64,000 bases of DNA from Candidatus Latescibacterota bacterium (lineage in GTDB: Bacteria > Latescibacterota > UBA2968 > GCA-2709665): assembly GCA_965226795.1 (NCBI GenBank), contig CBDDDZ010000003.1, positions 256,001-320,000 of the forward strand, written 5' to 3'. The notes under the pieces are model-generated. The model worked only from the letters and a program-made list of their open reading frames with translations, did no database searches and had not been told where the DNA came from. Shown piece by piece: positions 3,036 through 39,118 of this stretch. Both the position numbers and the translations under genes were made by a program. The number at the start of each line of letters is the position of its first letter. Within the stretch, counting starts at the first letter, position 1.

Positions 3036-3255
3036 CCTGCCTCCGGCGGGTTCCTTTTGAAGCGACCAAAAGGAACCAAAAGTCGCCGCTAGGCGCGGGG
3101 CCGTTCATATACATTGCGCGAATTACGTCACGGGACCCACCGGATCCGCTGCCCTGCCAACCCCGGTGGATACCGTAATTTGGTGCAGGACGGAACAACG
3201 CGCCCTGTTCTGGTAGTGCTCCGGATAGCCATCGCGTTAGACAAGCGCGTGGCTA
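3036..3255 (-). repeat. Structured intergenic repeat, divergent copy A' (minus strand)
   Basis: Reverse complement reads GGCCCCGCGCCTAGCGGCGACTTTTGGTTCCTTTTGGTCGCTTCAAAAGGAACC, the same core layout as the plus-strand copies. Confidence 0.7.
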
Positions 3256-3430
3256 CCTGGTTGCGAGCAGTAATTGGCTATCAGCAGATTGCGGTCAGCC
3301 TACACCGGTAAACGACACGGAGACACGATGTCAATCAACGAAATTTAAATTTTCATTTGCTCGGGCAACCACAAGGGTTGCCCCCATAAACCAAACGGGA
3401 CACGAGTGGATTCGCGGCTTTTCGCATTGG

Positions 3431-3662
3431 CCTCTCACCCGACCGGTTGTGGCGTGGGGGGTTTTTCCGTGTCATTCCGTACATCTCCGTAGGCCGGGAG
3501 TTCCGAGAGGGCTTGTAGGCCACCCAATCCCATTTTGCGCCCATGAGACGATTCACGGAAAAACCGGCCCCGCGCCGAGCGGCCTGCCTGCGCCGAGCCG
3601 TGCTCGGCAGGCAGGCGCGGTTCTTTTTGGTCCTTTTTCTTACGCGAATAAGAAAAAGGACG
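3431..3662 (+). repeat. Structured intergenic repeat, copy A
   Basis: GTTTTTCCGTG...CACGGAAAAAC stem, nested 33-nt palindrome (3583-3615), and TTCTTTTTGGTCCTTTTTCTT-loop-AAGAAAAAGGAC core. Confidence 0.9.
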
Positions 3663-3798
3663 AAGAAGAAGAAAAGTTGGTTTGAGAAGTATAGCCTGTG
3701 ACCGCTCGGTACGCAGTTCCATGCAAGAATCGACCGCTAACGGCTGGATCTCGGGGTGGCCTTCTCACGTCTTCCCTTTTCCGGCTTCTTTCCGACAG

Positions 3799-3827
3799 TT
3801 GACGGGTTTCGTGGATTCGATTAAATT
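3799..3827 (+). promoter_or_regulatory. candidate sigma70 promoter of ilvD
   Basis: TTGACG-N17-TAAATT. Confidence 0.5.
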
Positions 3828-3913
3828 AAAGTAACGCGTACCGCGTGCAAAATGGAAACGACCGGGCACGAACTCACGACGAATACAGGGCAACAATCGA
3901 AAAAGGGGAATAT

Positions 3914-5587
3914 ATGGCGCTGAATAAGTACAGCTCCCGGATAACGCAGGTGAAGTCCCAGGGGGCTTCACAGGCGATGTTGTACGGAACCGGAATGACC
4001 GAAGCGGATATGGACAAGGCGCAGGTTGGCATCGCCAGCATGTGGTACGAGGGCAATACCTGCAATATGCACCTGCTGGACCTTTCGGCAAAGGTGAAGC
4101 AGGGCGTGAATGCGGCCGGTCTGCTGGGAATGCGTTTCAACACTATTGGCGTGAGCGACGGGATTTCAATGGGAACGGAAGGCATGAGTTTTTCGCTTCA
4201 GTCGCGGGACCTCATCGCGGATTCAATCGAGACGGTGATGGGCGCCCAGTGGTACGACGCCAACATATCCCTCCCGGGCTGCGATAAGAACATGCCCGGC
4301 TGTGTGATGGCCATGGGGCGGTTGAACCGGCCGTCTCTGATGGTTTACGGAGGTACCATCAAGCCGGGTTTCCGTGACCACAAAAAGCTCGACATCGTGT
4401 CCGCCTTCCAGAGTTACGGTGAGTACCTGGCGGGCGAATTGGACGACGAGGCGAGGAAGGGCGTGGTGCAGCACGCCTGTCCGGGGGCCGGAGCGTGCGG
4501 CGGGATGTACACCGCGAATACGATGGCGTCCGCCATTGAGGCCTTGGGCATGTCGCTGCCCTATAGCTCTTCGACGCCCGCAGTAGACAAGGGTAAGCTG
4601 GAGGAGTGCTTCCAGTCCGGCGCGGCCATCCGGAACTTGCTCGAGCAGGATATCAAACCCCGGGACATTATGACCCGCGAGGCGTTCGAGAACGCGATAG
4701 TTGTGGTGATGGCCCTCGGCGGGTCGACCAACGCGGTGCTGCACATGATCGCAATCGCGAAGTCGGTGGGCGTGTCGCTGACGATTGACGATTTTCAGTC
4801 GGTGAGCGACCGGGTGCCATTGTTGGCGGACTTCAAGCCCAGCGGGCTGTATGTCATGGAAGATCTGCACACCGTGGGCGGAACGCCCGGCGTGATGAAG
4901 GTTCTGCTGGAGAACGGCCTGCTGAATGGAGACTGTCTGACGGTAACGGGCAGGACGATTGCGGAGAACCTCGCGGAGTTGCCCGGACTGGACGAGGGAC
5001 AGCAGGTGGTTCGGCCGATGGACCGGCCGATCAAAGCCACGGGGCATCTGCGGATTCTACGGGGCAACTTGGCGCCCGAGGGCGCGGTGGCCAAAATTAC
5101 GGGCAAAGAAGGAGTGCGGTTCGCCGGGCCCGCGATGGTGTTCGACCGGGAGGAGGATCTCCTCGGAGCGGTGGAACGAAACGAGATGAAGAAGGGATGT
5201 GTAGTCGTAATCCGTTACGAGGGACCCACGGGTGGACCGGGCATGCCGGAGATGCTCACGCCCACGTCGGTGATAATGGGCGCGGGCCTGGGCAATGACG
5301 TGGCGCTGATTACGGACGGACGTTTTTCGGGCGGTTCGCACGGTTTCGTCGTGGGGCATATTACGCCCGAAGCCCAGGAGGGTGGAGCGATCGCCCTGAT
5401 CGAAAATGGGGACGTGATTACAATTGACGCGGAAACCAACGAGATCAACGTGAACCTGAGCGACGAGGAACTGGCGAAACGACGTGCGGCCTGGGTGGCC
5501 CCGCCATACAAAGCCACCCAGGGGACGCTTTACAAATATATCAAGACCGTGACCACGGCTTCCGAGGGTTGCGTGACGGACGAGTGA
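3914..5587 (+). CDS. ilvD: Dihydroxy-acid dehydratase
   Basis: [41 protein letters not shown] and TDGRFSG motifs. ATG at 3914 follows AAGGGG. Confidence 0.97.
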
Positions 5588-5639
5588 ACGAAGGTCCGGT
5601 CGTCATTACATCAGCCGGGGGAGCGATGTGGTCACGAAA

Positions 5640-5700
5640 CCCTGCGCTTAGCCGCTCGCTGAGCTTGCGGTCCCTGAGCCTGTCGAAGGGTCGGCGAAGT
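5640..5700 (+). repeat. CTGAGCCTGTCGAAG-type small repeat cluster
   Basis: CCCTGAGCCTGTCGAAGGG at 5672-5690; related copies at 15902, about 15950 (minus), 58001 (minus) and 63451. Confidence 0.7.
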
Positions 5701-5899
5701 GTAACGAAGGATGTGGATTCTAAGTCCGCAATGTCTGGAATATGAGAGTGATCTACCTCGCATGGCAGATTCCGCAGACACCGTCTGCAGAATTATTGCC
5801 GGCTGGTATTACGCGCCTGTCAGAAGGTAAAGAACCCGGGACAGAGAACGAAGGGATGAACGAAAAGACCGTGTAGCGACGAGAGGAAAACCATCAAAC

Positions 5900-6292
5900 A
5901 TGAGCTTGACACCCGAGCCTTCAGCCGTCCACGAAACCGGGGCAACGCCACCTTTTGATTGGGAAACCTTTTGCCGGTACGTGAGGAATAGGGGAAGGAT
6001 AGTATACAACGTGTCGTGGAGACACAGGTGTGAGTTGGAGTTGAAGCTGCCCTTGAGTTTTCTTATTGTGAACCTGATTGTTCGCAAGCTTGAACTGATC
6101 GTGCTGGCGGTGACCGTCTACCTGACTTTCACTGGTGTGTGGCTATACAGCATTGTTGGCTTCCTTATCTGGTACATATTCCTTTTCCCATTGAAGAGAA
6201 AAAGCGTAGCTGCTTCTATTACGCTCCACGCTGCGGAAGATCGTGAATACTTCGATCTGGCCAGTGAGCTTGGGACCCTTCGGTTGGAATAA
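5900..6292 (+). CDS. Hypothetical membrane protein
   Basis: 130-aa ORF with hydrophobic segments; visibly lower GC than its neighbours. Confidence 0.6.
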   Translation: MSLTPEPSAVHETGATPPFDWETFCRYVRNRGRIVYNVSWRHRCELELKLPLSFLIVNLIVRKLELIVLAVTVYLTFTGVWLYSIVGFLIWYIFLFPLKRKSVAASITLHAAEDREYFDLASELGTLRLE

Positions 6293-6480
6293 CGAATAAT
6301 AACCTTAATTCGCCTTAAACCTGATGCAAGCATGTCGGGGGCATGATGCCCGTCTTCCCTGCATAAGTCGCGCCGAGCGGCGCGGTTCACAAAAAGCAAC
6401 CAGCGAACAGTTGTCAGCAGTCAGCCAAGAGCAAGAACAAACACCGAAAATCAATCCTGACACGTGAGACAGCGCAAAGC

Positions 6481-6668
6481 CGACGGAGAGTGGAAGGGGC
6501 TTTTCCGCGCTGATCCGTCCAGCCACGCGGCCCTACTTGGCCAGATTAGTCAGCAGGGCGCCATTCGTCGTATTTCCCCTGGGGCGATTCGCGGAAAAGC
6601 AGCCCCGCGGCGTCTGAGCGGCGCCCTTCTTTTTCGCCCTTTTTCTTTGGCGATGCAAGAAAAAGGGC
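6481..6668 (+). repeat. Structured intergenic repeat, copy B
   Basis: GGGGCTTTTCCGCG...CGCGGAAAAGCAGCCCC stem plus core; no nested insert. Confidence 0.85.
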
Positions 6669-6947
6669 AAGGGAATAAGGGACGTTAGCGGGAGGGGAGA
6701 TTCTATGTGACCCCTTTTTCCTGCCGGCCGGCCGGAACGCAGATCCAAAAAGCCATAAGACGTATGGCGGTCGAAGTGAGAGGATCAATCCGCAACCCTC
6801 CGGTTTCGCGCTCGCTTTGGTAACCCAAGTCTCTATTCGTACAACGACACCCCGGATGCCGGGGTGACATCCAACAAGGTAACATACACCTCTTGCGTCT
6901 TTCCTCTAGCCTCTCACGGCTTTTAGCGATCATTGCGATCGCTTTTT

Positions 6948-8438
6948 CTATTCTGGATTCCCGTGCCGCCGGGCGGTTTGAATGGCGCGACGCCAACGTT
7001 TGAGCAGAGCGTCGCGCTTTTTTTCGGACATGGAGGGTTCGAACGTGCGTTCGGGAGGGTTCAGATCCGAGAGCGCGCCGGGCCCCGTCCAGAAGCCGGT
7101 CGCAAGGCCGGCGAGCATGGCGGCGCCCACGCCTGTGGTCTCCGTGTGGCGGGGACGGATAACCGGTGTACTTAGAATATCGGCCTGGAATTGCATCAGG
7201 AAATCGTTGGCGGAGGCGCCGCCGTCTACGCGCATACCGGCAAGCTGACGCCCTGTGTCCGCGGCCATGGCGTCCACGAGGGCGGCGCTCTGGTAGGCGA
7301 TGGATTCCAGGGCGGCGCGCGCGAGGTGAGCGCGTCCGGTGCCCCTGTTGAGGCCAACGATCGTCCCCCGGGCATCCGTATCCCAGTAGGGCGCGCCGAG
7401 GCCCGTGAAGGCGGGTACCAGGTAGACGCCGCCATTGTCCGGGACGGATCGCGCGAGGGCTTCCGTTTCGGCCGCACGCGCGATCAGACCGAGGCCGTCG
7501 CGTAACCACTGAACGGCCGAGCCGGCGCTGAAAACGGAGCCTTCCAGGGCGAAGGCCGGACCGCCGCGGCTATCGCATGCGAGCGTGGTGAGCAGGCCGT
7601 TCCTCGATGGGACGGCATTGAGGCCTGTGTGGAACAGGACGAAGCAGCCCGTGCCGTAGGTGTTCTTGACGTCGCCCTCGGATACGCCGCGCTGCCCGAA
7701 GAGCGCGGCCTGCTGGTCTCCCGCGATGCCGGCAATGGGGATGCCATCCGGCAGCGGACCAGCGCCCGCGGTACTGCCGAACACATGAGCGGAGGGGTGA
7801 ACCTCCGGGAGGATGGCCCGCGGAATGTTGAACGCGTCCAGCAGCTCCGCGTCCCATTCCCGTGTGTGGATATTGAAACACATGGTGCGGGAGGCGTTGG
7901 TAAGGTCCGTCGCGTGAACCTTTCCGTTGGTGAGACGGTGGAGGAGATAGGTGTCGATGGTGCCGAAGCAGATGTCGCCCGCTTCCGCCCGGCGACGGAG
8001 TCCGGGTACGTTTTCCAGGAGCCAGACGATTTTGGTGGCGGAAAAGTAGGGGTCTATGACAAGGCCTGTCTTTTCGCGAACCATTTCTTCAAGACCCCGC
8101 TCCCGGTAGCGTCGGCAGATGTCGGCCGTTCGGCGGCACTGCCACACAATGGCGTCGTGGACGGGTTCGCCCGTGCGCCGATCCCACAGGACGGTGGTTT
8201 CTCGCTGGTTGGTGATCCCGATACCCTCAAGGTCGGTCGGGCGCACGCCTGCATCTCGGATCGCATCGGCGATCACGGCGCCGGTAGAACGCCAGATCTC
8301 CTCCGCGTTGTGAGAAACCCACCCGGGTTCCGGGTAGATCTGGCTGAATTCCGCATAGGCGCGGCCGGCAATGTCACCTGAACGGTTGATGACGAGCACC
8401 GTCGTGCCCGTGGTGCCCTGGTCAATGGAAAGGATCAT
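6948..8438 (-). CDS. glpK: Glycerol kinase
   Basis: IDQGTTG, GITNQRETT, VWQCRRT, DPYFSATK, GDQQAALFGQ, KNTYGTGCF and VDGGA motifs. Confidence 0.97.
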   Translation of the reverse strand: MILSIDQGTTGTTVLVINRSGDIAGRAYAEFSQIYPEPGWVSHNAEEIWRSTGAVIADAIRDAGVRPTDLEGIGITNQRETTVLWDRRTGEPVHDAIVWQCRRTADICRRYRERGLEEMVREKTGLVIDPYFSATKIVWLLENVPGLRRRAEAGDICFGTIDTYLLHRLTNGKVHATDLTNASRTMCFNIHTREWDAELLDAFNIPRAILPEVHPSAHVFGSTAGAGPLPDGIPIAGIAGDQQAALFGQRGVSEGDVKNTYGTGCFVLFHTGLNAVPSRNGLLTTLACDSRGGPAFALEGSVFSAGSAVQWLRDGLGLIARAAETEALARSVPDNGGVYLVPAFTGLGAPYWDTDARGTIVGLNRGTGRAHLARAALESIAYQSAALVDAMAADTGRQLAGMRVDGGASANDFLMQFQADILSTPVIRPRHTETTGVGAAMLAGLATGFWTGPGALSDLNPPERTFEPSMSEKKRDALLKRWRRAIQTARRHGNPE

Positions 8439-8502
8439 TCAGACGCCCTCTGCGCTGTCTCGGTTTGAGATCGGGAGGAGTCGTTGGCGCGTCGCTGTTT
8501 CC

Positions 8503-9345
8503 TTACTCGGTTTCTTCCAGACCAGTCACCGGCTCGGGTGAACCGCGCTTTTCCCATTTCTTGAGCCGGATTTTTCCGTTTTCCAATACCGCATAAGTGC
8601 ATTGCTGAATCCAGTCGCCCAGGACCACAAGTTCCCCGCCGCGTTCGGCGGGACGATCGGTTGGATTTCCGAGACACACCTTCGGACCTGACTGATCGCC
8701 GTCTGAACCGCCCACGCGAGCGTGAAGAAAAAAGTGATAGTGGCCGTGGATCACGATGTCGATGCCTTCTGCGATTTTTTCACCTGCGGCCTTGTAGAGA
8801 ATATCCCGGTTACCGAAACCCCGTCTCCGGATGCGGAACTCGGAAAGGCGGGAGGTGGACCTGGCGAGGATCGCCCCCAGGTCCGGGTGAAGCAAGCGAA
8901 ACAGCCCCACGCAGAACCGGTTTTTCAGGACCCCGCGGCTGAGGCGGAATCGCCAATCGGTCCGGATTTCGTCTCCGTGGGCAATGTGGATTTTGAGGCC
9001 CTGATGGGTGACCGTGATCGGACCGCCCGGGAGTTCAACGCCAAGCTGCCCGGAGAAGTATTCGCCCGGCCAGAGGTCGTGATTACCCGGCAGGTAAATC
9101 ACGCGCACACCTGCCTCGACCAGGTTGTAGAGTTCGAATAGGACCCGGGCGCCGCTCGAAGGGATCGTCGTGCGGTATTCGAACCAGAAATCGAAGAGGT
9201 CGCCGACGATATAGAGCGCCCGTGCGTCGTGGCGGATGGACCTCAGGAAGTCGATCAGGACGTCTTCCCGCTCGCGGGTGCTGTGTCCAGTACCCGGCGC
9301 CCCGATGTGGACGTCGGATATGAAATAAATCCGGTTCAAGTACAT
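8503..9345 (-). CDS. lpxH: UDP-2,3-diacylglucosamine diphosphatase (LpxH-like), with an internal insertion of about 24 aa
   Basis: ISDVHIG, GDLFDFW, GNHD, HGD, GHYH and VLGDW metallophosphoesterase motifs. Confidence 0.85.
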   Translation of the reverse strand: MYLNRIYFISDVHIGAPGTGHSTREREDVLIDFLRSIRHDARALYIVGDLFDFWFEYRTTIPSSGARVLFELYNLVEAGVRVIYLPGNHDLWPGEYFSGQLGVELPGGPITVTHQGLKIHIAHGDEIRTDWRFRLSRGVLKNRFCVGLFRLLHPDLGAILARSTSRLSEFRIRRRGFGNRDILYKAAGEKIAEGIDIVIHGHYHFFLHARVGGSDGDQSGPKVCLGNPTDRPAERGGELVVLGDWIQQCTYAVLENGKIRLKKWEKRGSPEPVTGLEETE

Positions 9346-9446
9346 CACCAATGTCAGGAAAAACAGCTATCAGCAATCAGCTTGAACCGTTTCACGATAA
9401 GGCCTGGCGAAATCAATTGACACATGTCCTCACCGACATTGCGTTC

Positions 9447-9470
9447 GTTGGGGCGGTTCGCGAACCGCCC
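9447..9470 (+). repeat. REP palindrome (GTTG variant)
   Basis: GTTG-GGGCGGTTC-GC-GAACCGCCC. Confidence 0.7.
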
Positions 9471-9493
9471 GCCTTGTGGCCCTTCAAGATCTA

Positions 9494-9762
9494 TCTCTCA
9501 GCCACCCGGTGGTGGCGTTGGGGGCTTTTCCGCGCCAATCCGTTCAGCAACACGGTTTACGGATCACCTGCGATCTACGCAGGCCTCCAACCCTTGTAGG
9601 CGCCCCTGAGGCGATTTTCGGAAAAGCAGCCCCGCGGCGTTTGAGCGGCGCCGTTCTTTTTGGCCCTTTTTCTTTGGCGAGAAAGAAAAAGGGCGTAAAA
9701 ATAAAAAAAATAACAATTTAAGAGAAATATATGGACGAGGTTATAGCAAACCCATCATTCAC
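9494..9762 (+). repeat. Structured intergenic repeat, copy C, with 3' extension
   Basis: Core at 9613-9695, an A-rich tail, then about 50 nt (9712-9762) shared with copy E (20244-20295). Confidence 0.9.
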
Positions 9763-9802
9763 GTTTCCCCAAATACCCTTCCTCTTGCGAGCCTAGGCAC
9801 AC

Positions 9803-9826
9803 GGGCGACCCGTGGGTCGCCCCTAC
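9803..9826 (-). repeat. GTAG-type REP palindrome
   Basis: Reverse complement GTAGGGGCGACCCACGGGTCGCCC is identical to 38534-38557. Confidence 0.85.
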
Positions 9827-9890
9827 AAAAATCAGACATCCGTGCATTCACATCGCCATGCCTTATCGCCAACTGCTGTTGGCTGACCGC

Positions 9891-12065
9891 TTACTCTCTC
9901 AGTAACTGTCTGATCACCGGGGCCTGCGGATCGTCGGGATTCAGTTCCAGGGCTTTTTGCAGGTTGGCTCTGGCTTCCTCCATGCGGTTCAGAGCACCGT
10001 AGGCAAGGCCCAGGTTGAAGTAGGCGCTTGGGAGCCGGGGATTGATTTGAATGGCTTTTTGAAGGTAGGGGATCGCCTTTTCGTACCGGCCCATGCTGTG
10101 GTACGTACCGCCGATGTTCAGGTAGGTCCGCGCGCTGGCCAGATGGGGTTGAAGTTGGAGTGCTTTCTTGAGATGTTCGACGGCCTCCGCGTAACGGCCC
10201 AGGCCATGGAAGGCCGCACCGAGGTTGACGTAGGCATCGGCGAGGCCGGGTTGGATTTCAAGGGCTTTATTGAGAGGGTCGATGGCTTCGCCGTACCTGC
10301 CCATCTCGTTGTAGACGGCGCCGAGGTTGACGTACGCATTCGCGGCTTCGGGTTTGAGTTCAACGGCTTTCTTGAGTTGGTCGATCGCCGCCCCGTGCCG
10401 TCCGGTTGCCAGGTAGGCGGTACCCAGATTGATATAGGCTTCCGCGAAGTCGGGTTGGATCTCGACCGCTTTTCTAAGGTGTTCGATCCCACGCTGCGTC
10501 TGCCCGAGGTCGCAGTATATGATCCCGGCCGACAACCAGTGTCTGGGGTTTTTCGGACTCGCGTCGAGCGCGCGCCTGTAGGCGTTCAGCGCGGGTACCG
10601 TTTTCCCCCTCAGCCGGTAGTAGGTACCGAGCGTTTCCCATCCGTAGGAGGCGGCATGTCCGCCCAGCCTGCCCATTTGGTGCACGTATCGCGCCTCGGC
10701 GGCCGCGGGTTTGGCGTTCACGCCGATCCACAACATGGTGTGCAGGGCGGCCGCTGCGAAAATCACGGAAACGTTACGGGAACGCGGTTCCGCGTGTTCG
10801 CGGAGTTCCAGAAGCGCCGAGGCGGCCCATAGCGTGAGCGGCAGGGCCGGAAGCGCCAGAATGTCCCAGTCCCTGAACGCGCCGATCTCGGGGTTGGCGA
10901 AAAACGTGAAGACGAGCGGGACGGCTGCGGCAGCAAGCAGGAAGGGGTGGTGTCGAAAGTCTTTCCTGCCGAACAGGAACAAGGCCATCAACGCGGCGGG
11001 GGCCGAGAGGATCTGCAAGTTGATAAAGTCAAGCAAATGGGAGATTGAGAAGATACGGTAGGGAACGTAGAATCCGGGATCGGCAAGCAGGGGAAGGAGA
11101 TGAATTTTCCCGCCAGTCCGCTCCAGAAAGGCGACGAAATCGAAGCCTGCGAGCCAGAAGACCAACACGGCGGCAAGCGGGGCTGCGCACAGCGCGCCCA
11201 GAGGTGCGACGACGTTGTTCCATCGCTGCATTGAGCTCTCCCTGCGCCGATACCCGTAATAGGCGAGGATGAGCAGGGAAGGCACAAAGAGTACAAACAG
11301 AAAGTGGAACGGGACGAGGAGACCCAGCACCAGCGCAGGTACGTAAAGGGGGGCGCGGTTGGCCAGGCATCGAAGACCTGCCAGCAGATAGAGCAGACTG
11401 GCCGGCATGTAAAAGGCGTAGTTTTCCACGTAACCGAAGAAGAGTTGTACGTATCCGGCGGTAACGAGGAAGGTGAACACGACGGATTTTTCACGGTCGT
11501 TTTTCCCGAGAGCGCCGGCCGTGGCGAACGCGAGCAGGACGTACAGGAGACCGGAGGCGTAGCTGTAGACCCGGTACGTGTTCTCGGCGGAATGCCACAC
11601 CTCGGCGCCGGCGCGATGCAGGACTCGAATCAGCACGAAGGTGAGGGGCGCCCGATCCACGCGTTCGAAGATTCCGGCGTCCAATTCCCTCATGTAAAGG
11701 TACCCGTCGCCCAGGAGATGGCGCGCGGACTGCAGCGCAAAGAAGCCAGCCAGCGCAAGGAGAATCACCAGGGTGCGGACAAGCCAGGTGCGGGCGCCGC
11801 TGCCCCAGAGAACGGAAGGAAGCGTCCCGAACCATGCACGGACTCGAGCACGCACGCATGGAACGAGAACGAGTACGGCAAGCAGGATGAAAACTGCACG
11901 GAGCGAATCCGAATAGTAGTACAGGAGATCCGCGCCCCAGAAGGGGTTGGGACGCCAGAAAGCGAGAAGGATGTGAAGCCCCAGGAACGCGGCGGCGATG
12001 GTGGCCGGCTGCCTGAGACGATCTGATCGTTGCCGTTTGGAATTTCGTGTCCTTTTCTTGCTCAA
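9891..12065 (-). CDS. Polytopic membrane protein with C-terminal TPR array
   Basis: Many hydrophobic helices followed by about seven canonical 34-aa TPRs (AYINLGTAY...AIDQLKKAVELKP). Confidence 0.9.
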   Translation of the reverse strand: MSKKRTRNSKRQRSDRLRQPATIAAAFLGLHILLAFWRPNPFWGADLLYYYSDSLRAVFILLAVLVLVPCVRARVRAWFGTLPSVLWGSGARTWLVRTLVILLALAGFFALQSARHLLGDGYLYMRELDAGIFERVDRAPLTFVLIRVLHRAGAEVWHSAENTYRVYSYASGLLYVLLAFATAGALGKNDREKSVVFTFLVTAGYVQLFFGYVENYAFYMPASLLYLLAGLRCLANRAPLYVPALVLGLLVPFHFLFVLFVPSLLILAYYGYRRRESSMQRWNNVVAPLGALCAAPLAAVLVFWLAGFDFVAFLERTGGKIHLLPLLADPGFYVPYRIFSISHLLDFINLQILSAPAALMALFLFGRKDFRHHPFLLAAAAVPLVFTFFANPEIGAFRDWDILALPALPLTLWAASALLELREHAEPRSRNVSVIFAAAALHTMLWIGVNAKPAAAEARYVHQMGRLGGHAASYGWETLGTYYRLRGKTVPALNAYRRALDASPKNPRHWLSAGIIYCDLGQTQRGIEHLRKAVEIQPDFAEAYINLGTAYLATGRHGAAIDQLKKAVELKPEAANAYVNLGAVYNEMGRYGEAIDPLNKALEIQPGLADAYVNLGAAFHGLGRYAEAVEHLKKALQLQPHLASARTYLNIGGTYHSMGRYEKAIPYLQKAIQINPRLPSAYFNLGLAYGALNRMEEARANLQKALELNPDDPQAPVIRQLLRE

Positions 12066-14405: not shown

Positions 14406-14462
14406 TCAGCCATTAGCATACAGCCGTCAGCAACAACAGGTATCAGCTCTCAGCAAACAGCT
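14406..14462 (+). repeat. Degenerate CAGCNNT heptamer tandem array
   Basis: gtcagccattagcatacagccgtcagc...tatcagctctcagcaaacagct; similar arrays near 2978, 3277, 6400, 9363 and 19676. Confidence 0.7.
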
Positions 14463-14468
14463 TAAACC

Positions 14469-14840
14469 GGTTCGCCGCTCCTGAGCTTTGTCCCTCACGC
14501 GACCGGTTGTGGAGTGTGGGGTTTGTTCGCGGCAAAAATCGCGCCGCTCACCATCAGCCTCGAACGCCAAAACCAGGCGTCCCCTGTTGTCCCGTATAGA
14601 CCCCGGAACAACAGGTCACCCGCTTCGCGGGCGGAGGCGGATTCTCCACTCTTTAACGTCCAGCACCGAAGTGCCGTGGATCCCGATGCGTACGTAGGGC
14701 ACAACCGCCAGTATACGCCACTGACGAGATTCGTGGAAAAACCGGCTCCGCGCCGAGCGGTCTGCCTGCGCCGGCCCGTGCTCGGCAGGCAGGCGCGGTT
14801 CTTTTTGGTCCTTTTCCTTGCGCGAACAAGAAAAAGGACG
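14469..14840 (+). repeat. Structured intergenic repeat, copy D
   Basis: Core with nested insert (14761-14793) and a 120-nt module (14544-14663) shared with copy G. Confidence 0.9.
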
Positions 14841-14884
14841 GAGAAATTGAGAATTGATTGAAGTGATGCATTTCCCTCCCCTTG

Positions 14885-15833: not shown

Positions 15834-16003
15834 CCCTGTGCTTACCGAAGCGTGGTCATTGCCTGTGCTGGCTTGTCGAAGCAAGCTTGTCGAAATGTGT
15901 ACGCTGAGCCTGTCGAAGCGCCCGTGTTTCGGCGCCCTTCGCCGACCCATCGACAGGCTCAGGGCAGGGCTTAGGGGCCACAGGCTCACGATGCGGGCTC
16001 AGG
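15834..16003. repeat. Nested cluster of CTGAGCYTGTCGAAG-type repeats
   Basis: Several GCTTGTCGAA/GCCTGTCGAAG units on the plus strand and an inverted TCGACAGGCTCAGGG unit. Confidence 0.7.
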
Positions 16004-19675: not shown

Positions 19676-19731
19676 ACAGCGAACAGCCGTCAAAAAAACA
19701 GCTATCAGCTGTCAGTTTACAGCATTCAGCT
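19676..19731 (+). repeat. Degenerate CAGCNNT heptamer tandem array
   Basis: cagctatcagctgtcagtttacagcattcagct. Confidence 0.7.
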
Positions 19732-19973: not shown

Positions 19974-20295
19974 CCTCCCGCCCGCCCCGCTGTGGGGATG
20001 GGGCTTTTTCGCTCTATCCGGCGATTTGCCTCTCGCGTGTCCGGTGGTGGTGCGGGGGGTTTTTCCGCGTTGATCCGTCCAACCGTGTCGCCTCGTGTAT
20101 GCTCAGGCGGTCTCAGGGCAATGTCTCACGATTTCTCCACTAAGGAGATTCGCGGAAAAACCGGCCCCGTGCCGAACGGCGCCGTTCTTTTTGGTCCTTT
20201 TTCTTGGGCGTACAAGAAAAAGGACGTAAATAATAGAAAAATAAACAATTTACGAGAAATACATGGTCGAAGTCATAGCAAAACCCATCGTTCGC
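19974..20295 (+). repeat. Structured intergenic repeat, copy E
   Basis: Duplicated 5' unit, long stem, core without nested insert, A-rich tail, and extension shared with copy C. Confidence 0.9.
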
Positions 20296-20339
20296 CTTTA
20301 TCCGCTTTTTTCCGTGCCTCCAGCTGGAGCTACGCTCCC

Positions 20340-32294: not shown

Positions 32295-33062
32295 ATGACA
32301 GATCAGAATACAGTCCGAAAAAAAGATATCGTGACAGGTTTCCATTCCCTCGGCCTTCGGGAAGGCGATGCGCTTCTCTTTCACAGTTCCCTGAAGAGCT
32401 TTGGTTACGTGCACGGAGGCGCGGATACCGTCATCGACGGCGCCATCGAAGCCGTTGGCGCAACCGGTACCGTCGTTGTGCCCACTTTCGTACAAAAAGT
32501 GAACGGCGAATCCGCCACCTACAGGACCCGTCGCCAAGCCTGGAACATCCGTACATCGCCCTCGGACGTGGGCCACGTCACCGAAGTCTTCCGCCGGCGC
32601 CCGGAAGCCGCGCGCAGCGACCACTGCTGCGACTCCCTGGCCGCCATCGGCGCCGAAGCCGGGCGCGCAATGGGCGGCCACAGGTCCGCTGGGCCCCGGC
32701 TGAGTCCATGGGACGAAAAAGCGTTCGGCCATGGCTCTCCGTGGGACTGGCTGGTCGCTCGCAATGCCCTTTACGTGCTTATGGGTGTCGGCTTCAATGT
32801 CTGCTCCATCTTCCACTACAACCAGGCTCTATGGGTTGAACGCAATTACAAAAACGCCAGCGAGTCGCGAATGTGGCCCGGATTCAACTTCAACGTTATG
32901 GGCGACCGCGTCAAGTCCGCCGGCCTTGTCCGGAAGACCACCGTGGGTCCCTCACTATGGCATGCCTTCCGCGTCGCTCCCACCATCGAGTATGTCTGCC
33001 GCGTCCTTGATGACGAACCCGCCCTCATCACGCTTTCACCACTGAAACTCTACGGCGATTGA
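32295..33062 (+). CDS. AAC(3)/YokD-family N-acetyltransferase
   Basis: HSSLKSFGYVHGGA, GTVVVPTF and FGHGSPW motifs. Confidence 0.9.
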   Translation: MTDQNTVRKKDIVTGFHSLGLREGDALLFHSSLKSFGYVHGGADTVIDGAIEAVGATGTVVVPTFVQKVNGESATYRTRRQAWNIRTSPSDVGHVTEVFRRRPEAARSDHCCDSLAAIGAEAGRAMGGHRSAGPRLSPWDEKAFGHGSPWDWLVARNALYVLMGVGFNVCSIFHYNQALWVERNYKNASESRMWPGFNFNVMGDRVKSAGLVRKTTVGPSLWHAFRVAPTIEYVCRVLDDEPALITLSPLKLYGD

Positions 33063-33117
33063 TTCCCAAACCTTGACGACGCGAGGCCAATCCCATATCT
33101 TTGACTGCAAACAGGCT

Positions 33118-33393
33118 ATGGAATTCGAATGGGACGAACGCAAGAATGAACTGAACATCCAGAAACACGGTGTAGGCTTTTTGTCTGCCGCGCGTGTTTT
33201 TGATGGGCCCGTATTCACGTTTATCGATAACCGGAATGATTACGGAGAAATCCGGTACGTGTCTATTAGCAAGATTGAAGAAGCTGAACTCTACGTTGTA
33301 TACGCCATCCGCAACAGACGCCATCGAATCATCTCCGCAAGGAGAGCCAATCGAAATGAACGAAGAAAATATTGTGAGATATTCCCGCGATGA
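33118..33393 (+). CDS. brnT: BrnT-family toxin
   Basis: MEFEWDERKNELNIQKHG...DYGEIR...RIISARRAN. Confidence 0.93.
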   Translation: MEFEWDERKNELNIQKHGVGFLSAARVFDGPVFTFIDNRNDYGEIRYVSISKIEEAELYVVYAIRNRRHRIISARRANRNERRKYCEIFPR

Positions 33394-33646
33394 CCTGCCG
33401 GAAGATTCACAGACAGACTGGAATCGGGTCAACTTGTTGACGGAAGCGGAATTGAACGCCGCTGCGCATTCCGACACGGACGCGCCACCTTTCAGGAGCG
33501 GTGAAGATTGGGAAAAAACCGAAATAATGGCGCAGATTCCGATAGACCGGGAAACCTTTGAATACTGCAGGAAGCACGGTGGAGGCATTCAAACAGTCTT
33601 CAAGAATGCCGTGCGCGAGTACATGGATGCACATCCATTGAAGTAG
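33356..33646 (+). CDS. BrnA-like antitoxin
   Basis: Overlaps brnT; TDWNRV...DTDAPP N-terminus and an RHH-like C-terminus (IDRETFEYCRKHGGGIQT). Confidence 0.8.
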   Translation: MNEENIVRYSRDDLPEDSQTDWNRVNLLTEAELNAAAHSDTDAPPFRSGEDWEKTEIMAQIPIDRETFEYCRKHGGGIQTVFKNAVREYMDAHPLK

Positions 33647-33806
33647 CAATATGTAGGGTTCTTAAGGGACGGGTTCGGGGTTAGGTGATTTTGCGATCAT
33701 CTTGCCCATTTACCCGTTCTTTTTTCGTGCTTTTTTGTATCCCCGTCCAAGACGGCAGAGGAAAAAGGCGAGATACTCCACGCAACCATGCGGCTTCACG
33801 GATCCT

Positions 33807-34160
33807 CCTCTCACCCGCCCGGTCAGGGTGGACGGGGATTGTTCGCGCTTAAACGTACGGTATCATCTTTGTGCAGGAAAACTTCGCGCTTTTGTTGTAG
33901 AGAGGTTCGCCCATTCCTGAGCTTTATCCTTCGCGCGAGCGGTCTGGGGGTTGGGGGTTTTTCCGCGTTGTGATCCGTCCACCACCGTGGTTCTGGTACA
34001 CCTGAAGAACCCGTAGGCCACCCAATTTCCCTTTATTAATCTGAGGCGGTTCGCGGAAAAACCGGCCCCGTGCCGAGCGGCCTGCCTGCGCCGAGCCGTG
34101 CTCGGCAGGCAGGCGCCGTTCTTTTTGGCCCTTTTCCTTTGGCGAGAAAGAAAAAGGGCG
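33807..34160 (+). repeat. Structured intergenic repeat, copy F
   Basis: Duplicated 5' unit, module 33862-33923 shared with copy G, nested insert 34081-34113, core and A-rich tail. Confidence 0.9.
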
Positions 34161-34293
34161 TAAAAATTGCAAAAATAAAAAAGAGCTCTTCAGCGCATTT
34201 GCACGCCAAAGAGCCCATATAGTCAGGTTGTAAAAGCCGGCGGCCCTTACGACCCCGGCCGTCTATTGACCCGCGTGGTATCGGATCCGTCGC

Positions 34294-35598
34294 CTACCTC
34301 TCTCCAATCGACGCATAGTCCCGCTGATCTTCCCCGATATAGACCTGCCGCGGACGCGCGATACGCTGTTCCCGGTCGTTCAGCAACTCCTTCCACTGCG
34401 CCAGCCACCCGGGCATCCGGCCCAGCGCGAACATAACGGTCATCATGTCCGTTGGCAGGCCCATGGCCTGATAGATGATGCCCGAATAGAAATCCACGTT
34501 CGGATACAGCTTGTGAGAGACGAAATAATCGTCTTCCAGCGCAATGCGTTCCAATTCCAGAGCAATGTCGATGAGCGGATTCCTGCCGGTCACCTCGAAT
34601 ACGGTGTTGGCGGTCTGCTTGATGATCGCGGCTCTGGGATCGTAGTTCTTATAGACCCGGTGCCCAAAGCCCTGCAGGCGAACTTCCCGGTTGTGCACCC
34701 GCTCAATGTAGGACGGGATATTATCCACCGACCCGATCTCGTTCAGCATCTTTAGCACGGCTTCATTCGCGCCGCCATGCGCCGGCCCGTAGAGTGCGGC
34801 AGCGGCGCCGGCCGCGGAGGAGTACGCGTCTGCGCCCCCGCTGCCGATGCCGCGCATGGTGCTGGCGCTGCAGTTCTGTTCGTGGTCGGCGTGTAATATG
34901 AGAAGGACCTCCAGCGCGCGTTCCAGTGCCGGATCCGGTGTATCGTCGTCGGATCCGCTGAACATCATTCTCAGAAAGTTGCCGCAATACCCCAGCGAGG
35001 GATCCGGATCCACGAAGTCAAGCCCCTGGCTCCGGCGATACACCATTGACGCAACCACGGAAGTCCAGCCGATCAGTCGCCGAATATGCTGCTCCCGCGC
35101 GTCGTCGGAACTGACGTCCCTTGCATTTTCGAAAAACGTCGACAAAGATCCCAGCACACCCACCAGCATACCCATTGCGTGAGAGCCCGCCCGATACCCG
35201 TTCACCAGTTCGGTCAGTCTGGGGTCGGCTGACACGTTCGCCATAATCGACTCGTTCCACGCATCCAGTTGTGTCCGGCCGGGAAGGTCTCCATACAACA
35301 GCAGATATGCCGTTTCCAGGTGGGTGCTTTGCTCGGCAAGTTGCTCGATCGGATATCCGCAATAGCGGAGAATGCCCTTCTCTCCGTCGATAAATGTCAC
35401 CGCGCTCTGACACGAGCCCGTGTTCAGGTAGGACGGATCGTATCCGAGCAACCCGAAATCATCCTCCGATACTTTGATCTGTTTCAGATCCGCGGTTCTA
35501 ATCGCGGCGCCGTACTCGGGGTACGTGCCGTAAAGAATGGGAACATGGTAAGTCTTACCGGTCCGATTATCCGTTATCGAGAGGGAGTCGCTGTTCAT
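34294..35598 (-). CDS. gltA: Citrate synthase
   Basis: LHADHEQNCS, GPAHGGANE, GFGHRVYKNYDPRA and YPNVDFYSG motifs. Confidence 0.97.
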   Translation of the reverse strand: MNSDSLSITDNRTGKTYHVPILYGTYPEYGAAIRTADLKQIKVSEDDFGLLGYDPSYLNTGSCQSAVTFIDGEKGILRYCGYPIEQLAEQSTHLETAYLLLYGDLPGRTQLDAWNESIMANVSADPRLTELVNGYRAGSHAMGMLVGVLGSLSTFFENARDVSSDDAREQHIRRLIGWTSVVASMVYRRSQGLDFVDPDPSLGYCGNFLRMMFSGSDDDTPDPALERALEVLLILHADHEQNCSASTMRGIGSGGADAYSSAAGAAAALYGPAHGGANEAVLKMLNEIGSVDNIPSYIERVHNREVRLQGFGHRVYKNYDPRAAIIKQTANTVFEVTGRNPLIDIALELERIALEDDYFVSHKLYPNVDFYSGIIYQAMGLPTDMMTVMFALGRMPGWLAQWKELLNDREQRIARPRQVYIGEDQRDYASIGER

Positions 35599-35634
35599 CC
35601 ACAAAATTCCTTTCAGGTCGTCTTTGCCTGCCGG

Positions 35635-36304
35635 TCAGCCTCGAACCGCGTAGATCATACTTTCAAGAGGTGTTCCGGTCAGGTTATGGCCACACGTTTG
35701 GTGTCGAATCACCCCGCCGAAAACCCTCTCCAGCGCGCGTTCGTACGAATTGTTGACGGCCTGGCTCCAGATCGCCAGCGTTCCTCCCGGGCGCAGCCTT
35801 GTTGCGAGAGTCTGCAGCGCGGAAACGCTATACGCGCGCCGGCTTTCCGAACGCATAACCCGGTCGGGACCGTTGTCGATATCCAGTGCGATGCCGTGGT
35901 AGCTTCGGGGATTGCCCATGAATGTAATCGCAAAAATCGCCGACCACCACTTCCGTGCGCGCATCGTCCAGAATGTCGGCATTGCTCAGATATTCGCGAT
36001 TCCAGTTTACGATTCGCGAATCCAGTTCCACGACACACACAGAATGCACATTCGAATAGGCGAGCGCCTGCCGAAGGGAGTTTCCCAATCCCAGACCGCC
36101 GATAAGAATGCTGATTTTCCTGCGGGACGTCAACGTTTCCAGGACAGTGTCCATCAATACCCGATCGGACGAGGCATTGTAGGTGGCCGTCAGGAAAATA
36201 CCGTTGAGGATAAGTTCGAAATGGGTGGCTGTGCCGGCCTTAACGGACGCAAGCTGCAGTTCTCCCCGGCGGGTGGTTGAATGCTGCACAACCCGCCGTT
36301 CCAT
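35635..36304 (-). pseudogene. Spermidine synthase-like methyltransferase, frameshifted
   Basis: ILIGGLGLG and VVELD in one frame; IALDIDNGPD and LRPGGTLAIWS in the next. One extra base near 35916. Confidence 0.85.
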
Positions 36305-36561
36305 AGCCAGCCCCTGAAACGCCCCATCAGCCGCCTTCTCTATCGAAGTCAGAATAGGCACGATATTAAGATAATGCAGAATTAAAATTTGACAAGCAAA
36401 TTTGAACACAATGGCAGGGGCACCGAAAGGTTAAATCGCTTGACAATTCTCGATGGGCATTTAGATTGCCCGACCGGAGACACACCGCCCGAAGAATCCA
36501 CGGTTTATTTCAAGATTGAGGGTGATCAGTAATCTCGCCGAAAAGATCCGATTCACTGCAA

Positions 36562-37374
36562 GTGGCTGAAATCGAACGGGTAAACCATGGAATATCCCGT
36601 GGCCGCTTCCGCTCGGTGCTCTTCGATTTCGACGGAACGCTCTCGCTGATTCGCCAGGGTTGGCGAAAAATCCTGGTACCGATGATGGTCGAAACGCTTG
36701 GTGAATGCAACACCGGCGAGACCAGGACGCAACTCACCCATGTTGTCGCTGACTTTGTCGACCGGTTGACCGGAAAGCAGACCATTTACCAGATGATTCA
36801 GCTTGGCGAGGAGATTAAGAAACGCGGAGGAACGCCTCCGGATCCTGTCGCCTACAAACACCGCTATCTCGAACGGCTTAACCTCCACATACGGAACCGC
36901 GTCAACGGCCTCCATTCCGGGGAAATCGCGCCGGAAGATTTCATGGTGCCGAAGTCGCTGGATCTCCTTCGCAACCTGCAGCGCCGGGAACTCACACTGT
37001 ATCTGGCAAGTGGTACAGATGAGGTGTACGTTAAAAAAGAGGCCGCCCTTCTGGGGCTGACGCCGTTCTTTGAAGACCGCGTCTACGGCGCCCTGGATCA
37101 ATATCAGGATTTCTCCAAAGAAAGGGTGATCCGGGATCTGATTGCCTCACAGGGGATCGAGGGCGAAGAGTTGCTGGGCTTTGGCGATGGATACGTGGAG
37201 ATTGAAAACGTCAAATCTGCGGGCGGAACGGCCGTGGGCGTCGCGTCTGATGAAGCCGGACGCCGGGTCGTGAATGCATGGAAACGCGACCGCCTTATTC
37301 AAGCGGGGGCGGATCTGATTATACCGGACTATCGGAGCCAGGAATTACTCCTGGACTATCTCCTCAATGTGTAG
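36562..37374 (+). CDS. HAD-family hydrolase
   Basis: FDFDGTLS, LASGT and FGDGYVE motifs; TTGACA-N16-TAGATT at 36440-36467. Confidence 0.9.
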   Translation: MAEIERVNHGISRGRFRSVLFDFDGTLSLIRQGWRKILVPMMVETLGECNTGETRTQLTHVVADFVDRLTGKQTIYQMIQLGEEIKKRGGTPPDPVAYKHRYLERLNLHIRNRVNGLHSGEIAPEDFMVPKSLDLLRNLQRRELTLYLASGTDEVYVKKEAALLGLTPFFEDRVYGALDQYQDFSKERVIRDLIASQGIEGEELLGFGDGYVEIENVKSAGGTAVGVASDEAGRRVVNAWKRDRLIQAGADLIIPDYRSQELLLDYLLNV

Positions 37375-37505
37375 GATCCGTCCGCCGAATGCCAGTCGAG
37401 CACAAAGCGGAACCCGTCCTGTGACGCGGCGCCAACTGGCGATATGGCGAATGGACCCGGGCGGTTGACGAGACCAGGGCGCTTCCGAGACGTCCCAGTT
37501 TTTTT

Positions 37506-38537
37506 ATGACCCATGCAGATCTACAAAAGCTACTGGAATCGTTTTCGAATCTTGAAATCCTCGTTATCGGGGATTATTTCCTGGATCGATATCTCGTCGT
37601 CGATCCTGACCTGGCTGAAATCTCTCTGGAGACAGGGCTGGAGGCCCGGCAGGTGGTGCAGGTCCATAACCGGCCGGGTGCGGCAGGAACCGTGACCAGT
37701 AACCTGAATGAACTGGGCGTGGGGAGGATCCGGGCGCTCGGGGTGATTGGCGATGATGGACAGGGGTACGATCTGACGGCGGGCCTGCGTGCGACGGGTG
37801 TGGATACGCGGCATCTGATGGAGATTTCGGGCCGCGTTACGCCAACCTATACAAAACCGATTCTCAGCACGAACGGGCAGGAGATGGAGCGATTGGATAT
37901 CAAGAATCGCTCTCCCCTCCCGCGACACGTTGAAGGCCTCATCCTCACCGCCCTGGAGAATCTGCTTGGCGAGGTCGATGGTGTGATTGTGCTCGACCAG
38001 GTTCAGGAACGCAATTGCGGTGTGATTACGGATCGCGTTCGGGCGGGAATCGCGCGCCTCGCTCCTGAGTATCCCGATGTCGTATTTCTGGCGGATTCCC
38101 GTTCACGTAGCGCAGCGCTCAGGAACGTGATCGCGAAGCCCAACCGTGACGAGGCCCTCCGGGCGGTGTCCGCGAGTTCCGGCGCGGAAGGCACGAAGTG
38201 TCTGAACACCGCCATTCGGTCTTTTGTCGCGCGCACCGGTCGACCCGTCTACATTACACTTGGCCCGGAGGGTATCCTCTGCGACGATGGGGAAGCGATT
38301 CATCGCGTTCCGGGCATTTCAGTGCCCGATCCCATCGATATCGTGGGCGCGGGGGATAGCGTTTCCGCGGGGATTGCCTCGGCACTTTGTGCGGGCGCCT
38401 CGTACGTCGATGCCGCACGGGTAGGCGTGCTGGTGTCTTCCATAACCATCCAGCAGATCGGGACAACGGGCACCGCGTCACCCGAACAGGTGCTTCAACG
38501 GTTCGAGGAATCCAGTCAGGATGCCCGGTTCCTGTAG
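37506..38537 (+). CDS. PfkB-family carbohydrate kinase (RfaE/HldE kinase-like)
   Basis: GDYFLDRY, PGAAG, KPNRDE and DIVGAGDS motifs. Confidence 0.9.
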   Translation: MTHADLQKLLESFSNLEILVIGDYFLDRYLVVDPDLAEISLETGLEARQVVQVHNRPGAAGTVTSNLNELGVGRIRALGVIGDDGQGYDLTAGLRATGVDTRHLMEISGRVTPTYTKPILSTNGQEMERLDIKNRSPLPRHVEGLILTALENLLGEVDGVIVLDQVQERNCGVITDRVRAGIARLAPEYPDVVFLADSRSRSAALRNVIAKPNRDEALRAVSASSGAEGTKCLNTAIRSFVARTGRPVYITLGPEGILCDDGEAIHRVPGISVPDPIDIVGAGDSVSAGIASALCAGASYVDAARVGVLVSSITIQQIGTTGTASPEQVLQRFEESSQDARFL

Positions 38538-38606
38538 GGGCGACCCACGGGTCGCCCACCTGTCCGCGTACACGTTGCATTTGTAGGGGCGGTTCGCGAA
38601 CCGCCC
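38534..38606 (+). repeat. Two tandem GTAG-type REP palindromes
   Basis: 38534-38557 and 38583-38606. Confidence 0.85.
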
Positions 38607-38647
38607 GAATGGTACGGTGAAAGGGGACGGCGGTCCCTCAAGTTTCA

Positions 38648-39118
38648 CCTCCCACCCGCCCGGTCGTGGTGCGGGGGGCTTGTTCGCGGTATGAGACGCA
38701 CCGCTCACCATCAACCTCGAACGCCAGAAACAGGCGTCCCCTGTTGTCCCGCATAACACCCGGAACAACAGGTCACCCGCTCCGCGGGCGGAGGTGGATT
38801 CTCCGCGCTTTAACCTCCAGAATCATCTGTGTACGGAAAAACCAGCAGCTTTTGTTGTAGAGGGGTTCGCCCGCACCTGAGCTCAATACCTCCTGCGAAC
38901 GGTGGTAGAGTGGGGGGTTTTTCCGCGTTGATCCGTCCCCCACTATGGTTCTGATACACCTGAGGGACCCGTAGGGCACCCAATTCCCATTTGTGCCCCT
39001 GAGGTGATTCACGGAAAAACCGGCTCCGCGCCGAGCGGCCTGCCTGCGCCGAGCCGTGCTCGGCAGGCAGGCGCCGTTCTTTTTGGTCCTTTTTCTTGGG
39101 CGTACAAGAAAAAGGACG
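38648..39118 (+). repeat. Structured intergenic repeat, copy G (longest)
   Basis: Contains the modules shared with D and with F, the nested insert 39039-39071, and the core. Confidence 0.9.

Follow-up and report, generated by a model that had tools for sequence, protein, structure and literature searches.

We analysed a 64,000-nt stretch of the genome of a Candidatus Latescibacterota bacterium (assembly GCA_965226795.1, contig CBDDDZ010000003.1, positions 256,001–320,000), called the window below, and found that it carries eight copies (A' and A to G) of a dispersed repeat. Each copy contains a core whose predicted fold, an H-type pseudoknot with a triple helix, is well supported as a structure by comparative evidence. 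The repeat occurs as two end types that pair with each other, holds an unstructured interior of nearly constant length, and is likely a distant relative of the TwoAYGGAY repeats of Pseudomonas. It is likely a mobile element, for which no mobilising enzyme was found.

Pseudoknot and triple helix

A sequence-only reading of the window had proposed that the core forms an H-type pseudoknot in which a pyrimidine linker serves as a parallel third strand, and this geometry is backed by covariation. Several details could be read from the window itself. The upstream tetramer is complementary to the hairpin loop in all copies, the small stem is CCGC/GCGG or CCGT/ACGG, the inner pair of the terminal hairpin is A-T, G-C or T-A (mismatched in B), and the linker TTCTTTTT matches AAGAAAAA in parallel. 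Two other details needed correction. The base of the terminal hairpin is GTCC/GGAC in A, D, E and G and GCCC/GGGC in B, C and F, as had been claimed, but the hairpins of D and F contain a C-A mismatch. The long stem pairs as described in A, B, E and F and is imperfect in C, D and G.

The alignment of 71 copies showed the highest mutual information at positions 221:228, 210:239, 75:175 and 178:188 and at the pseudoknot pair 198:222. Compensatory pairs of the long stem were found at 75:175 and 83:167. G-T wobbles in this stem exceeded A-C (19 vs 3), which indicates that the plus strand is the sole folding strand; the terminal hairpin alone was uninformative on the strand (G-T 4, A-C 7).

The loop–tetramer pairing was tested on 67 diverse 39-nt cores from other taxa, thinned from 134. 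The pseudoknot helix was 83.2% paired, compared with 61.0% in shuffles. Its covariation score of 0.495 (0.164 in shuffles) was reached by 0 of 500 shuffles, and slid controls scored at most 0.137. All four pseudoknot pairs changed on both sides and the whole structure was 94.7% paired, in counts that include related sequences and are uncorrected for relatedness.

Covariation extends to the third strand. A degenerate core pattern, whose C/T and A/G positions were picked after a similar motif in Xanthomonadales, matched at least 115 GTDB loci and at least 123 metagenome loci. Among the matches listed, the taxa were Gammaproteobacteria including Burkholderiales, Latescibacterota, Gemmatimonadota, Nitrospirota, Desulfobulbus, Clostridia and Bacteroidota. 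The three variable positions of the pattern could vary independently of each other; the third strand nevertheless agreed with the purine strand in 116/116 of the GTDB matches listed (C-C-G 74, T-T-A 41, one stem mismatch) and in 126/126 of the metagenome matches listed (89 + 37, none discordant). Loop pairing of at least 4 bp was present in 106 of the 116 listed GTDB matches, compared with 28.6 in shuffles.

Loci picked by their match to the Rfam family TwoAYGGAY (RF01731) gave 35 distinct cores with a mean of 4.89 triples, against 3.33 ± 0.15 and a maximum of 3.91 in 5,000 shuffles; four of the 35 have two or fewer. Both the length and the sequence of the tract differ among these cores (TTT/AAA to TTCTTCTTT/AAGAAGAAA), with the third strand changing in step. 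The 223 distinct cores contain 27 tract types. One core (L398) places G opposite a T-A inversion; the G-T-A triad is the preferred one in DNA triplexes.

Pyrimidine-motif triplexes in H-type pseudoknots are established RNA folds, found in telomerase RNA and in the SAM-II, SAM-V and preQ1-II riboswitches according to PMC7583470. The predicted topology is the same here, with loop 1 pyrimidines in the major groove of stem 2. Up to 8–10 consecutive canonical triples are predicted, compared with 3 in human telomerase and about 2 in the riboswitches, which add ligand-binding non-canonical ones (PMC7583470). Unlike those RNAs, the present core is free to vary in sequence, occurs in many copies, and is associated with no cis gene class and no template or reverse transcriptase (RT) partner. 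It resembles the BoxC/PIT/TM repeats in being multi-copy and intergenic, with Hoogsteen, pyrimidine and purine segments on one strand. In the intrastrand triplex scheme of PMC4666352, which also describes TM loci as unstable, the plus strand falls into class IV. The G/C-rich class II consensus beginning CCCTCNCCC is absent from the core, which is A/T-rich. BoxC-like motifs occur in the same mosaics as the element.

Architecture and fixed-length interior

The genome contains 79 main-type copies, 71 of them with the left arm, and 32 A'-type copies, which form a separate subfamily with a 4-nt third strand. A sequence-agnostic core descriptor gave 106 matches in the genome and one on the reversed genome, and 100 dinucleotide shuffles of the window gave no match to the core pattern. 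The window has seven plus-strand cores; an eighth pattern match, at 3650, is copy A seen from the minus strand. All eight copies of the sequence-only reading are real members of the family, but A' lies on the minus strand and belongs to the second subfamily.

The element reaches beyond its first description on both sides: about 80 nt precede the long stem, and the core is followed by about 70 conserved nt. A main copy of about 320 nt comprises, in order, the degenerate 5' sequence, the long stem, the interior, a small hairpin, an optional palindrome, the core and the 3' extension, which is conserved in three subfamilies. The core is a 37–46-nt pseudoknot with the segment order Hoogsteen, pyrimidine, purine. 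The optional 33-nt nested palindrome occupies one fixed position in 47/79 main copies and matches at seven further places away from cores, some apparently within reading frames; it looks like an independent micro-element.

The interior within the long stem kept its length more strictly than its sequence. It measured 87 or 88 nt in 66/72 main copies of the genome and in 52/56 interiors from other genomes, and 84–86 nt in 29/32 A' copies, although nearest neighbours are only 56–100% identical. Substitutions and indels numbered 1298:30 in interiors, compared with 532:54 when other intergenic DNA was aligned to that of two relatives, a contrast that is approximate because the alignment modes differed. 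The interior is unstructured, with fold z values near 0 on both strands (35 copies), and appears from these lengths to act as a ruler-like spacer. Short conserved anchors recur in it at a lag of 36 nt (0.35 vs 0.25 background). The within-copy and cross-copy values are nearly equal (0.342 and 0.328), so this periodicity is a feature of the consensus only and a copy-specific 36-nt duplication was rejected.

Three other roles of the interior were also rejected. Coding was excluded by the lack of codon periodicity and by stops in 11–30 of the 35 copies in every frame. A guide RNA or captured spacer was excluded by interior matches of 8.14 nt to own flanks and 8.08 nt to others, with no credible genomic targets. 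The substitution spectrum was ordinary and transition-rich, which excluded mutagenesis of the diversity-generating retroelement type.

Two end types and their pairing

The A' and main types are paired. A main copy lies within 2 kb of 28/32 A' copies, always in divergent orientation (26 distinct main copies), whereas random placement gave 2.5 pairs on average and at most nine in 2,000 trials. One of these pairs is a 57-nt deletion form, and three A' copies form one tandem run. Main–main pairs number only three, all tandem. The A' and A copies of the window are one such divergent pair. All 32 A' copies end in a mini-hairpin GCC-GNA-GGC (GGA 13, GAA 11, GTA 7, GCA 1).

The two junctions behave differently. 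The 5'-5' junction is variable and holds heptamer arrays, GTAG-type repetitive extragenic palindromic (REP) sequences and other modules. A 3'-to-3' arrangement of the two types also occurs in relatives, with a distance of 83–88 nt in 18/21 listed junctions, measured from the main core to the A' terminal hairpin; in ten of the 21 the sequence runs on into an A' core that is complete or almost so. The A' type is present in 13/14 other members of the genus, and a similar short form recurs as a partner in Pseudomonas. Loci outside Latescibacterota gave 53 pairs, of which 45 were divergent, three convergent and five tandem. The partners carry different triple-helix tracts in 42/45 divergent pairs, a rate that is no clean test because many loci were selected for one particular tract.

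Relation to TwoAYGGAY

The sequence-only reading had recognised no named family. This is partly refuted, because the same core lies directly 3' of TwoAYGGAY matches; it holds to the extent that the repeat lacks the AYGGAY hairpins and is therefore not an RF01731 member. The Rfam search found only tmRNA (transfer-messenger RNA) in the window, and an E-value scan of window positions 2800–10200 gave chance matches only. No Rfam family matched the element at gathering score or credible E-value, including the known self-cleaving ribozyme classes. The RF01731 search likewise gave no match in the window or genome, where its controls were also silent, though it works in other genomes.

The link came from related loci. 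One of 20 matched Rfam, as TwoAYGGAY directly upstream of the core. Of 60 loci picked by RF01731 alone, 54 were used, six being dropped as contig ends or duplicated assembly. The core was detected automatically on the same strand 3' of the match in 48/54 loci (Pseudomonas, Kangiella). Five further loci show it by eye with a loop insertion or mismatch, and a sixth (L197) with a mismatched stem.

A preprint (bioRxiv 10.64898/2026.09.22.753630) describes an extended TwoAYGGAY repeat with a 3' pseudoknot, divergent doublets (68.4%), short 5' repeats and REP arrays, in up to 202 copies and largely confined to Pseudomonadota, and suggests mobile-element-like spread. The core described here is probably that 3' pseudoknot module, an equation based on position, and the window's repeat is likely a distant relative of the Pseudomonas repeats. 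Both have a long basal stem and a small hairpin, end in a 3' pseudoknot, form divergent doublets, are associated with REPs and vary widely in copy number; short tandem repeats of some kind lie 5' of both. They also differ. The AYGGAY hairpin pair is absent here and the stem encloses an unstructured spacer of 87–88 nt (or 84–86 nt); the short repeats are 7-mers, and the six 5-mers of the preprint are unenriched (217 vs 199 expected), although related heptamers are enriched; and the Latescibacterota host falls outside the range given by the preprint.

The main text of the preprint contains no match for triplex, triple helix, base triple, single-stranded, RAYT or Latescibacter, and reports neither two end types nor a fixed 3'-3' junction. 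A literature search that covered neither the preprint's supplements nor most subscription journals found no published triple helix in this core. The present analysis adds the link to TwoAYGGAY, two coded end types, two junction types and fixed spacers. Beyond the preprint's main text are the triple helix, an AYGGAY-less form in another phylum, differently coded partners and fixed-length unstructured spacers. The extended repeat is probably also the R200 repeat of Pseudomonas fluorescens SBW25 (320 bp, 47 copies; PMC2718517), as suggested by the copy numbers of 47 and 48.

Distribution, turnover and mosaic context

The element is present in each of the 14 other genomes of the genus, which hold between 3 and 74 cores (a 25-fold range). 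The pattern matched 18/168 genomes of the phylum; the same subtype occurs in the named Latescibacterota records L054, L081, L094 and L106, and other genera of the family and order carry the element with changed stems.

Comparison of orthologous sites showed gain and loss. The sites of B, C, D and G are filled in two relatives (G013, G008) and without core in three (G009, G010, G001), and the core at site F is present only in this genome and in none of five relatives compared. The relatives are 80–91% identical, and several sites lacked anchors in more distant genomes. Interiors are exchanged between loci. Among 12 comparisons of filled orthologous sites, the interior is nearly identical in two, both with the core deleted in the relative, and replaced in ten (53–76% identity), where a paralogue is often the better match (up to 93%). 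DNA contigs of four runs break at copies and showed no empty allele. The search of plasmids gave no match for copy E and one weak match for a Pseudomonas copy.

The copies are intergenic and flanked by unrelated genes. The upstream gene is on the same strand as the element in 45 cases and on the opposite strand in 34 (downstream 35 and 44), which shows no bias, in a count resting on crude open reading frame (ORF) calls with many copies marked inside short spurious frames. A repeat desert (G000:C5:600000-3112756) has seven main copies in about 2.5 Mb, compared with 19 in the first 0.6 Mb of the contig; the P. fluorescens SBW25 genome likewise has repeat deserts (PMC2718517).

Degenerate heptamer arrays (TCAGCNN)n accompany the element. 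They start at the borders of intergenic mosaics and are oriented inward, even in mosaics that lack the element, and 24/36 arrays of the genome lie within 900 nt of a copy. The heptamers share the strand of the element in 55 cases and are opposite in none (0.8 expected). The arrays were rejected as part of the element because they persist at empty orthologous sites. They resemble the reverse complement of the TAACTGA repeats that PMC4679880 reports from Beggiatoaceae. A second array type (AGACGNN-like) often follows truncated copies. GTAG REPs lie within 600 nt of 33/79 main copies.

Other insertions were seen in relatives. Two group II intron insertions, one full and one an ORF-less derivative (about 740 nt), were seen in genome G008 at loci L159/L158 (site E) and L160 (site A). 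Each sits inside a heptamer array 5' of an element, antisense to the main copy; the site-A insertion is a group II intron derivative within the A'/A junction. Locus L030:4200-6150 of G013 has tandem main copies in which the unit carries a REP, a BoxC-like triplex motif and a C-terminal fragment of a RAYT (REP-associated tyrosine transposase). In RNA contigs of four metatranscriptomes, bins with copies had a depth of 64–178 in two runs, whereas that of the tmRNA bin exceeded 10,000. These depths were not used as evidence because they sum all copies and organisms and give neither strand nor ends.

Search for a mobilising enzyme

The genome has three Y1, two DUF559 and six reverse transcriptase matches, none beside a core, and no TnpB or IS110. 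GIY-YIG was also unmatched, a doubtful result as a UvrC domain would be expected. For IS200/IS605 omegaRNA and IS110 bridge RNA systems, no PF07282 or PF01548 match was found in the 95.9% complete genome, in a search that did not include IscB. A Pfam scan of 49/84 ORFs beside copies in 16 regions (a subset of copies) found no mobile-element transposase or nuclease, and viral contigs (7 and 59 loci) showed no recurrent mobile gene.

Of the three Y1/RAYT domains in the region G000:C2:154196-170280 (L001-L003), two belong to frames of about 1,200 aa; the third is free and has its own, different repeat. RAYT C-terminal fragments lie between tandem cores in G013.

Possible mode of spread

We favour, tentatively and with somewhat less than even confidence, a non-autonomous element similar to BIMEs (bacterial interspersed mosaic elements) and REPINs (REP doublets forming hairpins), folding as single-stranded DNA (ssDNA) and moved or amplified in trans by a putative, probably HUH-type (histidine-hydrophobe-histidine) nuclease. 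The fold would form in vivo and be made in DNA rather than RNA; a protein would read the core and measure the spacers, and this protein might be the HUH enzyme. The two AYGGAY hairpins may be lineage-specific cargo inside the long stem. A single-stranded (RNA or ssDNA), non-autonomous mobile element or a multi-copy non-coding RNA had already been suggested from the letters of the window. The range of copy numbers, the filled and empty sites and the folding of one strand agree with a single-stranded, non-autonomous element; a mobilising partner was not found.

The nearest parallel is the E. coli BIME, in which two REP types are paired inversely, head-to-head or tail-to-tail, and for which PMC3333891 gives an ssDNA amplification route. 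Two inverse end types with linkers are also present here. The differences from REP, BIME and REPIN elements with RAYTs are the unit length (about 300 nt here, 30–40 nt there), the triplex pseudoknot in place of a simple hairpin (imperfect palindrome), and the lack of a detected cognate tnpA-REP gene flanked by this repeat. c-GNA-g triloops, which are especially stable in DNA, number 58 on the folding strand and six on the other (100 non-window loci). Streptomyces telomeric ssDNA uses GCA loops with G-A sheared pairs (PMC4513846).

Several results weigh against such an element. Around 452 cores in 391 loci, no neighbour recurs except a single group II intron and, within a single array, RAYT fragments. 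No core was found in 45 Y1-transposase loci (45 of 86 Y1 matches examined as loci). PF01797 (Y1_Tnp) is unmatched in 7/14 other genus members, two of them the single-contig genomes G009 and G014, although every one of the 14 carries the element; genome G017 has 32 PF01797 matches and no match to the element. No clean empty/filled junction was obtained that would give the element ends or a target duplication in relatives 80–91% identical. The cores do not carry the 5' GTAG of REPs, which occur nearby as separate sequences. The IHF consensus is not enriched in the junction (3/44 vs 0.66, shuffle maximum 4), and leading/lagging strand bias is not significant (42/77, 33/53, 20/30). Loops typical of RNA are also enriched on the folding strand in non-window loci (GNRA 26:1, A(N)GGA 28:1), AYGGAY loops are proposed CsrA sites (PMC4333381), and the covariation counts are uncorrected for the relatedness of the cores.

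It is also conceivable, though rather unlikely in our judgement, that these are RNA elements. The members of a pair would be transcribed outward, the 3' triplex pseudoknot would stabilise the RNA or be recognised by an RT, and spread would occur by retroposition in trans, as for short interspersed nuclear elements (SINEs). Triplexes of this kind are established in RNA, and C-G-C triples are nearly always isolated here, as reviewed for RNA at physiological pH (PMC7583470). The one-strand G-T wobble and the GNRA and A(N)GGA loops of the folding strand would fit RNA, and the divergent pairs would fit outward transcription. The genome has six RT matches, and two group II introns sit in heptamer arrays 5' of A and E in G008. 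No RT recurs beside the cores, and the seven group II intron ends found in the genome are separated from the closest copy by 29–207 kb. The stretch between A' and A showed no sigma-70-like promoter. The strict length of unstructured spacers would be unexpected in an RNA linker. A poly(A) retro-tail was rejected, since the A-rich sequence after the core is the conserved extension of about 70 nt seen in three subfamilies.

Spread by recombination or gene conversion with no dedicated enzyme, from a DNA structure that stalls forks or polymerases as BoxC/TM does, seems to us unlikely. It draws on the class IV fit and the unstable TM loci (PMC4666352), on the replaced interiors (10/12 comparisons) and on the tandem arrays. 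It leaves unexplained the covarying pseudoknot and two differently coded end types across phyla, the fixed spacer lengths (1298:30 vs 532:54) and the appearance at new sites.

Improbable in our view are host-selected multi-copy regulatory RNAs acting as Csr/Rsm-type protein sponges, with copy number shifting by ordinary recombination. TwoAYGGAY loops match the CsrA-binding motif (PMC4333381; bioRxiv 10.64898/2026.09.22.753630), the anchors at the 36-nt lag could be repeated protein sites, and all 14 other genus members keep some copies; but the window family lacks AYGGAY hairpins and an RF01731 match (search controls silent), shows no relation to flanking gene orientation, and has a 25-fold copy range, site turnover and mosaic insertions that fit selfish spread better. 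A cis riboswitch or terminator was rejected, as the element has no fixed orientation to any gene class and its neighbours are unrelated.

Features of the window

The copies and other features of the window are listed in Table 1.

Table 1. Positions of the repeat copies, their parts and other features in the 64,000-nt window.
Feature	Position	Strand	Linker start	Remarks
tmRNA gene	1220–1579	−		
Degenerate heptamer arrays (TCAGCNN)n	2979–2988; 6401–6424; 14421–14460; 19677–19729			
A'-type element	3005–3270	−		left member of back-to-back A'/A pair; outer limits approximate; nhmmer match 3202–3065
A' terminal mini-hairpin GCC-GNA-GGC	3039–3047	−		N free
A' core	3050–3086	−		GCGAC; TTTT third strand; hairpin GTTCCTTTTG-CAAAAGGAAC; loop GTCGCTT pairing back to GCGAC
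A' fixed-length interior	3117–3202	−		anchors as in main type
Variable 5'-5' junction of A'/A pair	3271–3414			degenerate TCAGCNN heptamers; degenerate GTAG-type REP; limits approximate
Copy A, main type	3415–3721	+	3620	core, then 3' extension
Copy A long-stem arms	3462–3471; 3554–3563	+		
Copy A interior	3469–3556	+		88 nt
Copy A small hairpin	3570–3582	+		
Copy A inserted palindrome	3583–3615	+		
Core A	3616–3661	+		tetramer CGCG; third strand TTCTTTTT 3621–3628; hairpin 3630–3661
Second small multi-copy palindromic motif, GAGCCTGTCGAAG type	5660–5700; 15850–15980			many metatranscriptome and DNA contigs align there
Copy B	6489–6720	+	6626	interior 6507–6592 (86 nt); core 6622–6668; without inserted palindrome
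Heptamer array (TCAGCNN)n, degenerate	9364–9380	+		5' of copy C
Copy C	9468–9775	+	9653	interior 9532–9619 (88 nt); core 9649–9694; conserved 3' extension
Copy D, long form with extra 5' module	14467–14864	+	14798	interior 14648–14734 (87 nt); palindrome 14761–14793; core 14794–14839
Copy E	20017–20310	+	20184	interior 20067–20153 (87 nt); core 20180–20225; conserved 3' extension
Predicted aminoglycoside 3-N-acetyltransferase family protein	32295–33062	+		by PF02522 match
Y-rich/R-rich stretch upstream of copy F	33715–33780	+		may be a decayed core; family profile silent there
Copy F, long form	33807–34184	+	34118	interior 33965–34054 (90 nt); palindrome 34081–34113; core 34114–34159
Two GTAG REPs	38534–38606			precede copy G
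Copy G, long form	38614–39140	+	39076	interior 38925–39012 (88 nt); palindrome 39039–39071; core 39072–39117

Significance

A wider proposal, which we consider possible but doubtful, is that these repeats are paired-end mobile elements found across phyla. Their ends would be single-stranded triplex pseudoknots with different left and right codes, joined by ruler-like spacers of about 85–88 nt and read by a putative enzyme, and TwoAYGGAY and other orphan motifs would be cargo on this shared chassis. If true, one 40-nt fold would account for the 3' ends of orphan repeats that abound across many bacterial phyla. The core would also be a natural pseudoknot triplex of up to 8–10 canonical triples with covariation, possibly in DNA, and longer than the telomerase and riboswitch examples described in PMC7583470. 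The conserved difference between partners and the constant length of the spacers narrow down the mechanism in ways that can be tested directly. A short oligonucleotide bait would then give a handle on the spreading agent, a question posed by the TwoAYGGAY preprint.

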